Below are positions 43,906 to 45,758 of a stretch of 57,110 nt of DNA, in pieces. The DNA comes from Elusimicrobiota bacterium. Its GTDB lineage: Bacteria > Elusimicrobiota > Elusimicrobia > F11. Positions within the stretch are counted from its first letter, which is position 1; each line of letters starts with the position of its first letter. The position numbers and the translations under genes are program-made. The DNA lies in contig JBJXGI010000063.1 in NCBI GenBank assembly GCA_046153645.1, positions 1 through 57,110 of the forward strand, in the 5' to 3' direction. The notes beneath the pieces were generated by a model that saw only the letters and a program-made list of their open reading frames with translations, did not search any database and had not been told where the DNA came from.

Positions 43906-45012
43906 TTAAGGGTTTTTTGAATTTTCTTTTAAGATAAGGTGACGACAAGCAGTAATAGTACGGCGACTCACATGAAGTGAATAGTTTTCTGCTAAATGAT
44001 GCGCCAACTGTAGATCAGTCCATTTTTGATTATTTTCGTGTAACGTTTTATCGAGTGCAACAAGCACCACTCTTCTTTGCCCAGGCATTAAATCTGTTAT
44101 TAAAACCTCTTTATCCCAAGGTAATAACACACTTTTGAGCGCCAGCACTCGACTTAATGTACTGGGAGAAAAATGGAGATCTTTGGCACCTTTTCTTAAA
44201 GAGATAGGGGATAATTTGGTTTCATCTTTAGAATCAAAATAGGCTTTTTGAGCTTTTAATATGAAATCAGTCACTTGCCAAAAAGCCCCTTGCTTCATAT
44301 TAGAAAGTTCAAGAACTCCAATATATTTTCTTAATCGAGCAGCTTCACTTCGATTGAGGCCCTTGTTTTTTTGCCAGCGTTTAAGGGCATCTCGATCAAT
44401 TTCATACATGCCACGCGCCAAATGTGGTGAAAAAAAAGACATTGAATAAGTTCCGTCCACGTTGGGAATAATTTTACCCACCATTTGTGGGCGAGCCAGA
44501 TCATTACTCTCAAGCGCGGAGGGATGATAAAATTCGGCCTGTACGGAAACATCTAAAATAAGATCCTGAATTTCCTTGGTTTCTGACATAGATAAGTGAC
44601 AAACCTCGGCAATGTTTTCTAATGACTCGCCTTCTTCACGATAAAGAAAAAATTTCTCAAAGTTATCTTGCCCAATTTTTTGAATTAGTTTAAGTAAATG
44701 TATTTTTTGATTAAGAATGGTTTCTGGGGCACTGCCATGCCCTCCAGCAACATTGGTTTCTTGGTTGTCATAAAATTGACTGGCCAATTTAGTTTGACCA
44801 AAACGCTTAAAGCGAATAACCTTTTTTCCTTCTGATTTTCCACTTAATAAATCCTGAAAAAGAGGATCTCTTTCAATATCACCAATAAGCCGTGCCCATT
44901 GAGATTCTGGAAGTTGAATAGCCTGGGCCATTTTAACGCGCCCAACCAAAACAGTGCGAATAGCATTTTGAGGAGAAACAGATTGCTTAAGATGAATTCG
45001 AGGATCAGACAT
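43906..45012 (-). CDS. rpoN: Divergent, shortened sigma-54 (RpoN)-like protein
   Basis: Region I-like MAQAIQLP...IERDPLF; QKAYF...LSPISL...A..L...STLSR HTH; RpoN-box-like TDLQLA...VSRRTITACR; 368 aa. Confidence 0.75.
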   Translation of the reverse strand: MSDPRIHLKQSVSPQNAIRTVLVGRVKMAQAIQLPESQWARLIGDIERDPLFQDLLSGKSEGKKVIRFKRFGQTKLASQFYDNQETNVAGGHGSAPETILNQKIHLLKLIQKIGQDNFEKFFLYREEGESLENIAEVCHLSMSETKEIQDLILDVSVQAEFYHPSALESNDLARPQMVGKIIPNVDGTYSMSFFSPHLARGMYEIDRDALKRWQKNKGLNRSEAARLRKYIGVLELSNMKQGAFWQVTDFILKAQKAYFDSKDETKLSPISLRKGAKDLHFSPSTLSRVLALKSVLLPWDKEVLITDLMPGQRRVVLVALDKTLHENNQKWTDLQLAHHLAENYSLHVSRRTITACRHLILKENSKNP

Positions 45013-45022
45013 AGATATTATA

Positions 45023-45038
45023 TGCAACAGAAGTGCCA
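45023..45038 (-). promoter_or_regulatory. Sigma-54 -24/-12 site upstream of the rpoN-like gene
   Basis: Minus strand TGGCAC-TTCTG-TTGCA (GG-N10-GC); the predicted +1 falls on the A of ATG 45012. Confidence 0.75.
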
Positions 45039-45098
45039 GAAAATCAAGAGAAAAAATGGTGTCCTCGGCAGGATTCGAACCTGCGACCCACAGCTTAG

Positions 45099-45706
45099 CG
45101 TACCACATCTAATTCCTTAGATCAGGAAATTTCTTTCCTGTTGTGGTCTGGACTATATCTTAGGCATTTCAGCCCTTGGGCGTATAGTCTCTACGGAACC
45201 TCGAGAAAATCAGAAGCCAAATGAACTTTTTTACTCTGATTATTTCTCGACGCCTTTACCCTCAAGTTAAGTGATTTTCTAAACCTCTTTGGATCAAAGT
45301 AATAACATTGATCCGTTTCGGGGCAATACAAACAATATAAGTCAATCTTGGATTTATCAATATGTTTGGTATGGACACCATACTTATCAGACCATGAAGA
45401 TCTAAAAAATACAGGCATACAACCATTCTTATTCATTGACCGATACTTCACTTGCACCGTTTTGAAGGAGCTATCTTTATAAATCACCAAATCAAACTCA
45501 GCATGTTCAGTTAATGGTTTTAAAACCATAAAACCTTGCGTGGCCAAGTCCGCTTGAGCCTTCAAGACGCCTATGTCACCTTTATCTTTTGTGTGATGCT
45601 TCATGAGTGACCTACAGTTTCCTCGGTGTTGTCCATTTTTGGGAGTTTCACCGATATAGCCCAATCCACCATTTAGGTTTGTTTCCCTACATGGGCTCCT
45701 AGATTG
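45099..45706 (-). ncRNA. Group I self-splicing intron (IC3-like), 608 nt
   Basis: U at the 5' splice site paired to G in P1 (CUUC/GGAG); terminal G; P3 UUGGGC/GCCCAA; P4 UCGGUG/CACCGA; R GUAGAGACUA; S AAGAUAUAGUCC; P9 ACCACA/UGUGGU. Confidence 0.93.
45191..45604 (-). CDS. Intron-encoded PD-(D/E)XK homing endonuclease (I-Ssp6803I/PDDEXK_5-like)
   Basis: MKHHTKDKGDIG...L...G..V..P.....FDLV...VQVK...IDLYCLYCPETDQCY; lies in P6 of the intron. Confidence 0.9.
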   Translation of the reverse strand: MKHHTKDKGDIGVLKAQADLATQGFMVLKPLTEHAEFDLVIYKDSSFKTVQVKYRSMNKNGCMPVFFRSSWSDKYGVHTKHIDKSKIDLYCLYCPETDQCYYFDPKRFRKSLNLRVKASRNNQSKKVHLASDFLEVP

Positions 45707-45758
45707 AAGGCTGTTGCTCTTCCAGCTGAGCTACGAGGACGATTGAAACAAAGCTATT

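Follow-up and report, generated by a model that had tools for sequence, protein, structure and literature searches.

A probably mobile IC3-like group I intron with a PD-(D/E)XK nuclease gene in the only tRNA-Arg(UCU) gene detected in an Elusimicrobiota bacterium

Group I introns in tRNA-Arg(UCU) genes have been noticed before: in two Beggiatoaceae genomes a putative group I intron splits tRNA-Arg-TCT (Flood et al., 2016, PMC4853749, crediting MacGregor, 2013), and the proposal, made in a sequence-only reading of the locus studied here, that this host site had not been described is not supported. The Beggiatoaceae introns occupy the same host gene and were missed by annotation for the same reason, but the passage that mentions them gives no position, structure or endonuclease, the 34/35 site is presumed for them, and the Thiomargarita locus, which spans 324 bases, is too short for a full nuclease gene (PMC4853749). 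Williams (2020, 10.1101/2020.01.27.920355), in whose notation the present intron is of type Arg.3Ug, raised the number of interrupted tRNA types from 4 to 21, 17 of them new, and indicated that the seed of Rfam family RF00028 is without bacterial introns; nucleases are not analyzed in the text of that study. When RF00028 was applied to six Arg(UCU) loci, three scored 26-43 bits, above the threshold of 18-20 bits used there. As these three loci pass that threshold, Arg.3Ug is very likely among the 17 new types. The assemblies of the three loci presumably predate January 2017. According to Hausner (2014), protein-coding genes were the only known location of phage introns, so that the viral Arg(UCU) introns described below go beyond that review. 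Both the concept and Arg(UCU) as an intron host are known, and what remains is the enzyme.

The window, meaning the whole stretch of 57,110 nucleotides that was analyzed, is contig C20 of an assembly of 2.63 Mb that is 99.7% complete and consists of 105 contigs. On its minus strand, the only detected tRNA-Arg(UCU) gene is split by what we judge, from sequence comparisons, quite likely to be a mobile IC3-like group I intron that is spliced and that homes by means of a nuclease encoded in L6 (Table 1). The 5' exon contains the acceptor 5' strand, the D arm, the anticodon stem 5' strand and C32-U33-U34, the 3' exon contains C35 onward, the T arm, the acceptor 3' strand and an encoded CCA, and both joined without the intron give a normal 76-nt tRNA-Arg(UCU). 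Two of the 144 exon-length pairs tried gave a 76-nt Arg(TCT), and only the 34+42 pair combines a U preceding the intron with a terminal intron G, which bears out the 608-nt insertion after U34 proposed earlier. The 35+41 Arg junction and a Ser(GCT) call by ARAGORN were rejected, neither having this U/G signature. Neither plain ARAGORN nor Rfam at the gathering score listed anything at this locus, as had been expected of standard annotation. The two computational checks suggested beforehand each succeeded in part: RF00028 matched the 3' half only (16.6 bits, E 0.16) and stayed below the gathering score of 50, and ARAGORN with introns enabled detected the 608-nt intron but labelled the tRNA Ser(GCT) and not Arg(UCU). 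In practice, tRNA-Arg(UCU) is listed as absent or miscalled Ser(GCT) in many genomes. Two more ARAGORN intron calls in the genome (C1 and C37) were discarded as coding-like DNA with no tRNA or group I features. Both junctions are bridged by mismatch-free DNA contigs from public runs of one study, possibly the source of the window; no contig from four runs shows an empty allele of the window organism, although contigs cannot show absence. A scan for promoters did not rise above chance (4 against 2.3 +/- 1.5). A mechanical open reading frame of a sigma-54-like gene (43906-45108, minus strand) begins in the intron end and crosses the 3' exon; the real start of this gene is probably at about 45010, making the longer frame a likely annotation trap.

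Table 1. Positions in the window of the split tRNA gene, its intron, the ribozyme elements and the nuclease gene.
Feature	Position	Strand	Remarks
tRNA-Arg(UCU) gene	45057-45740	minus	intron-split
tRNA-Arg(UCU) 5' exon	45707-45740	minus	34 nt, positions 1-34, ends CUU
Group I intron	45099-45706	minus	608 nt, IC3-like architecture, omega-G at 45099
tRNA-Arg(UCU) 3' exon	45057-45098	minus	42 nt, starts CUAA, ends CCA
Internal guide	45696-45701	minus	GAG (45696-45698) P1; UAG (45699-45701) P10
P2 hairpin	45669-45694	minus	covariation in relatives
P3 5' strand	45659-45664	minus	
P4	45649-45654 with 45623-45628	minus	
P5	about 45632-45644	minus	short, only about 3 bp in window
P6 5' strand	45617-45622	minus	by-eye placement directly after P4 3'
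PD-(D/E)XK (PF11645) endonuclease gene	45191-45604	minus	137 aa, loop L6; ATG 45604
P6 3' strand	45195-45199	minus	catalytic core 3' half (45151-45199)
R/P7 5'	45185-45189	minus	canonical R
P3 3' strand	45176-45181	minus	
P8	45162-45175	minus	
S/P7 3'	45151-45155	minus	canonical S
P9.0	45143-45147 with 45102-45106	minus	fold of 3' part
P9 hairpin	45123-45140	minus	GAAA loop; fold of 3' part
Second hairpin	45107-45122	minus	GGAA loop; fold of 3' part

In the predicted pre-tRNA the ribozyme core is complete, and its guide pairs with C32-U33-U34. In P1, the guide GAG pairs with the exon CUU through a U34.G wobble, in P10 the guide UAG is able to pair with the 3' exon CUA, and P2 to P9.1 and canonical R and S elements could all be placed, every helix being present, so that the full group I core of the sequence-only reading, from the U-G pair to the terminal G, was recovered. 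The characters of group I introns are there, namely U at -1 pairing with G in P1, a terminal omega-G, the P3-P7 pseudoknot core, the P4-P6 domain and the G-binding G-C pair in P7; by inspection, the compact P2, a P5 without P5abc and the lack of P7.1 and P7.2 would fit subgroup IC3, to which the classical tRNA introns belong. Since earlier pairing fractions for P1, P3, P4 and P7 came from motif-anchored picks and were partly circular, covariation was judged on 40 introns from the matches listed that have no ORF and do not exceed 262 nt, reduced to 29 non-redundant ones. RNAalifold recovered P1-P6, P8 and P9 unaided from the ORF-less relatives, and when P7 was added 97.8% of cells paired in the 29. 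Two-sided changes were found in 39 of 55 core pairs compared with 28.3 in shuffles, none of 500 shuffles reached the observed covariation, and slid controls paired at 34-42%. P3 and P7 were each 100% paired in the 29 relatives, and the corresponding strands of the window are fully complementary. A sequence profile of these relatives, used for the genome-wide search in place of a calibrated covariance model, matched both halves of the window intron (E 2.8e-21 and 1e-12) and had no other match in the genome at E<=1. Counted against the assignment were the RF00028 score below threshold, the short P5, and a P10 that is perfect in the window but poorly kept among relatives, with its second and third pairs retained in only 157/203 and 120/203. 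In three other loci (L265, L267 and L150), P4 and its partner are separated by long insertions that have no ORF on the sense strand; the one in L265 resembles an antisense cysteine-rich gene.

The protein encoded in L6 matches PF11645 (E 1.5e-36, the 157-aa TTG-start form having been scanned); this TTG start was not kept, as it would run through P3-P6 and an ATG start is called both here and for most homologues. The last two codons and the stop overlap the P6 3' strand and J6/7, which is an instance of "core creep". No NCBIfam family scored above cut-off, and 380 homologues were found, with 55-76% identity among the best 120. The predicted structure (pLDDT 87.9) has its best match in 2OST, the structure of I-Ssp6803I (E 2.8e-10, TM 0.77), which together with the Pfam match upholds the earlier likening to I-Ssp6803I. 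The motif consists of D10, E33-H34, D38 and Q51-x-K53, and D38, Q51 and K53 align with D37, Q50 and K52 of the 2OST chain, giving the PD...QxK pattern. At the position of the helix-1 metal-binding Glu (E11 of I-Ssp6803I), the window has Val13 and all 40 aligned family members have V, L, I or A, so that the 137-aa PD-(D/E)XK gene described earlier as intact is intact in its reading frame but departs at this active-site position. The register of the alignment is supported by a close I-Ssp6803I orthologue in the tRNA-Met(CAU) intron of genome G024, which has Glu there. This fMet-like tRNA-Met(CAU) intron (L276, G024:C10, 1449-2187), from a genome of the window's class, carries the orthologue at its 5' end (E 4.9e-56 to 2OST). 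As the E11Q mutant of I-Ssp6803I is inactive (PMC2175346), the absence of E11 in 40/40 members, when the true fMet-intron orthologue keeps it, was counted against the homing explanation. However, migration of the acidic catalytic residue is documented in the superfamily, with the Glu just before PD in EcoO109I (PMC3424549), and E33 and H34 are invariant in 40/40 family members, as are D38 and Q51, with K or R at 53 in all 40; from this we infer that E33 substitutes for the missing helix-1 Glu. Because of Val13, the window protein is probably a relative working like I-Ssp6803I and not an orthologue. In six of eight nuclease pairs with finite dS, dN/dS was about 0.06-0.12, dS being saturated in the other two, and the window compared with the nuclease of L031 gave 0.228/2.085, within the finite-dS pairs.

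These data bear on the most serious alternative, an unlikely one, that the intron splices but the protein, having no E11 equivalent, acts not as a nuclease but as a maturase or an RNA- or DNA-binding helper. Valine or a similar residue in place of E11 throughout the family would fit such a role, and conservation may be partly RNA-driven where the end of the ORF is part of P6/J6-7, yet the invariant catalytic residues and the precedent of EcoO109I favor an enzyme. Among the matches listed, 75 of 100 mapped genome introns are without a gene of the window's nuclease family, so that splicing cannot generally need the protein, and free-standing copies adjoin Arg(UCU) genes that have no intron for a maturase to act on.

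At least 448 metagenome relatives of the nuclease were found, and the best 80 of these loci, duplicates included, were examined. Within these best 80, 70 lie inside an Arg(UCU) intron at the same junction (66 with both junctions, 4 with the intron cut by a contig end), 4 lie just downstream of Arg(UCU) (3 intron-bearing genes and 1 intact), 1 is ambiguous, and 5 have no tRNA within 900 nt; none lies in the intron of another tRNA. Three of the five tRNA-less loci were compared, and all match the Bacillus gaemokensis spacer downstream of Arg(UCU) at 81-83%. In the two best cultured-phage matches, a free-standing nuclease gene directly follows an intact Arg(UCU). Phage records PV340855 and MW316732 hold such free-standing copies next to intact Arg(UCU) genes. 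A blastn search of the intron 3' end against cultured phages returned tRNA halves only. That 74 of the best 80 loci place the nuclease in or directly after Arg(UCU), and none in other tRNA introns, argues from gene position that its target is the Arg(UCU) anticodon arm, and the new homing specificity proposed earlier, probably unlike that of I-Ssp6803I, agrees with this. In five loci (L072, L084, L137, L095 and L157; Bacillota where named), a nuclease gene stands free downstream of an Arg(UCU) intron that is degenerate or has no ORF, an arrangement that is a candidate for collaborative homing.

The distribution of the intron was surveyed with a pattern made of the junction and the S element, the 3' junction being fixed by the pattern. 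A class-wide pattern matched 25/301 genomes of the window's class, yet most of these matches are chance, as are those of reversed-pattern controls; real intron ends, judged by inspection, are rare (6/301). At least 118 pattern loci in species-representative genomes and 47 in viral contigs were obtained, from so many phyla that little is left of the novelty earlier claimed for the site, which Williams (2020) probably covers. Both exons were mapped for 100 of the at least 118 genome loci and for 43/47 viral loci, and all 143 splice to Arg(TCT) with the U/G junction, partly by construction of pattern and mapping. Record titles among the matches listed name Acidobacteriota, Gammaproteobacteria, Bacillota, Bacteroidota, Chloroflexota, Omnitrophota, Nitrospiraceae, Desulfobacterales and Elusimicrobiota. 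Among the 100 mapped genome introns from the matches listed, the PF11645-family gene is full in 21 and fragmentary in 4, and 2 of the 75 without it (L132 and L169) have a LAGLIDADG gene (Pfam PF14528). An HNH gene in L2 is present in 30/43 mapped viral introns (23 distinct), often in tRNA clusters, and in the viral contigs L229-L275 its start directly follows the guide sequence. One intron-bearing Arg-like tRNA (L278, G080:C89, about 1345-2050) has a 5' exon with CAU and not CUU (A at 33) and a changed guide, which is either a real variant or a sequence error.

A survey of relatives had been suggested as well, and it revealed an element common across phyla and phages together with an empty allele in most of the window's family, where Arg(UCU) is continuous in 10 of 11 other genomes and intron-bearing in one (G011). 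The G011 intron is 339 nt long and occupies the same syntenic locus, and retains both ends of a nuclease gene that has lost its middle. In 4/8 empty alleles the 32 nt spanning the site match the window's spliced form exactly, the others differing by 1-6 bases, and close relatives of the window thus carry a perfect empty target. Genomes with the empty allele include G001, G005, G008 and G010. Trees of the nuclease (33 rows) and of the ribozyme core (50 rows, 162 columns, long branches) have their main split in common, and in both the window falls beside G011 and L031, while other introns of its phylum lie elsewhere, with Omnitrophota. Holding the window and the same-phylum introns together was rejected (AU p 7e-40 for the nuclease, 4e-7 for the core) with groups that followed kinship but were tested only once the nuclease tree had been seen; because of this and the short core alignment, the result is read as at least two acquisitions, with no donor named. 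It is quite improbable, given this picture, that the intron is ancient and vertically inherited, was repeatedly lost, and is no longer moved by its present nuclease. Introns and nucleases do cluster by phylum more than shuffles, and the window's nearest relatives are G011, from its own family, and L031; against this stand two deeply separated intron/nuclease types within the window's class, the rarity of the intron there, its presence in phage tRNA clusters, and the three nuclease families that occupy the Arg(UCU) intron.

The host seems to depend on this gene. AGA is the commonest Arg codon (8671/33563, 25.8%) and is present in 1384/1442 long ORFs, and the other Arg tRNAs found by ARAGORN are CCG, UCG, CCU and an ACG truncated by the contig end. 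By standard wobble rules, C34 cannot read A. Neither a second UCU tRNA half nor an empty Arg(UCU) allele was found in the window's assembly (G000). As the only Arg(UCU) gene detected is interrupted, AGA is common and C34 cannot read A, splicing is probably essential for AGA reading, with the draft assembly as a caveat, and the dependence of AGA decoding on splicing raised in the sequence-only reading is to that extent probable. The rRNA-operon tRNAs Ile GAU and Ala UGC were not found in the 105-contig assembly, and in a draft without at least these two a second UCU gene may have gone unassembled. That the gene is a dead pseudogene or an assembly artefact, with AGA read via an unassembled second gene, is barely credible: the assembly is a draft and the Rfam score lies below threshold, but the exons are intact and syntenic with those of G011, downstream of a Ham1 gene, no core pair is lost, both junctions are spanned by contigs, and the assembly has no other UCU 3' half and no empty allele. 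At the contig end (56875-56925 and 57065-57110, minus strand), two tRNA-Arg(ACG) 3' halves lie about 140 nt apart, upstream of a tadA-like gene and tmRNA, and look like an att-type duplication or island scar.

For the spliced and mobile intron that we favor, the following course of events would apply. Under the established two-step mechanism, it is very likely that free guanosine would attack after U34, that omega-G would then take the P7 site and that the exons would join; as joining would restore the UCU anticodon, the host would need splicing to read AGA, and a probably essential decoding step would hang on a ribozyme. The L6-encoded protein is rather likely to be an I-Ssp6803I-like, probably multimeric, homing endonuclease, which would cut the pseudo-palindromic anticodon-arm DNA of an intron-less tRNA-Arg(UCU), with E33 replacing the helix-1 Glu. 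Repair from the intron-bearing copy would spread the intron, which by splitting the target site would protect it from cutting, and the element may cycle through invasion, nuclease decay and loss and move between lineages. All stages of such a homing cycle are present as empty, full, decayed and free-standing alleles, and with the nuclease-swapped alleles they offer a comparative set for its study. We lean slightly towards a broader reading, in which Arg(UCU) 34/35 would be a hotspot of homing across phyla and in phages. The endonucleases acting there would form an uncharacterized PD-(D/E)XK subfamily that has a specificity of its own and whose active site is rearranged, the Glu having shifted out of helix 1 into a TEH motif ahead of the catalytic Asp. 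The ribozyme would have been captured independently by PD-(D/E)XK (L6), HNH (L2, mostly viral contigs) and LAGLIDADG nucleases, and copies standing free next to intact tRNAs or introns without an ORF would allow collaborative or intronless homing. The literature searched, chiefly open-access papers, describes no nuclease for the Arg(UCU) site and does not tie the nuclease family to Arg(UCU), to a position in L6, or to the loss of E11 and an invariant E33; nor was the hotspot, the rearranged active site or the multiple capture found in it.

Among known systems, the IC3 intron of tRNA-Leu(UAA) in cyanobacteria and plastids (Leu.3Ug) has the same register as that of the window, after U34 of a CUU loop, but lies in another tRNA with another 3' exon. 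The short P1 and the P1-P2-P3 layout are, we assume, alike in both. The Agrobacterium-type intron of tRNA-Arg(CCU) (Arg.5Ug) is also a group I intron in the anticodon loop of an Arg tRNA, but of another isoacceptor and after position 36, and Arg(CCU) is uninterrupted in the window genome. With I-Ssp6803I from Synechocystis tRNA-fMet (PDB 2OST, PF11645), the window protein shares the fold, the Pfam family, the D/Q/K motif, a tRNA anticodon-loop intron as host and a pseudo-palindromic candidate target. The two differ in sequence (about 23% identity), in host (Arg(UCU) 34/35 compared with fMet, type 2Ug) and in the place of the gene, which lies in L6 with a 3' overlap on P6/J6-7 in the window and in P1 in the case of I-Ssp6803I (PMC3073962), and the window protein has the invariant E33-H34 in place of an E11 equivalent. 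The family would offer a second bacterial tRNA-targeting PD-(D/E)XK homing specificity.
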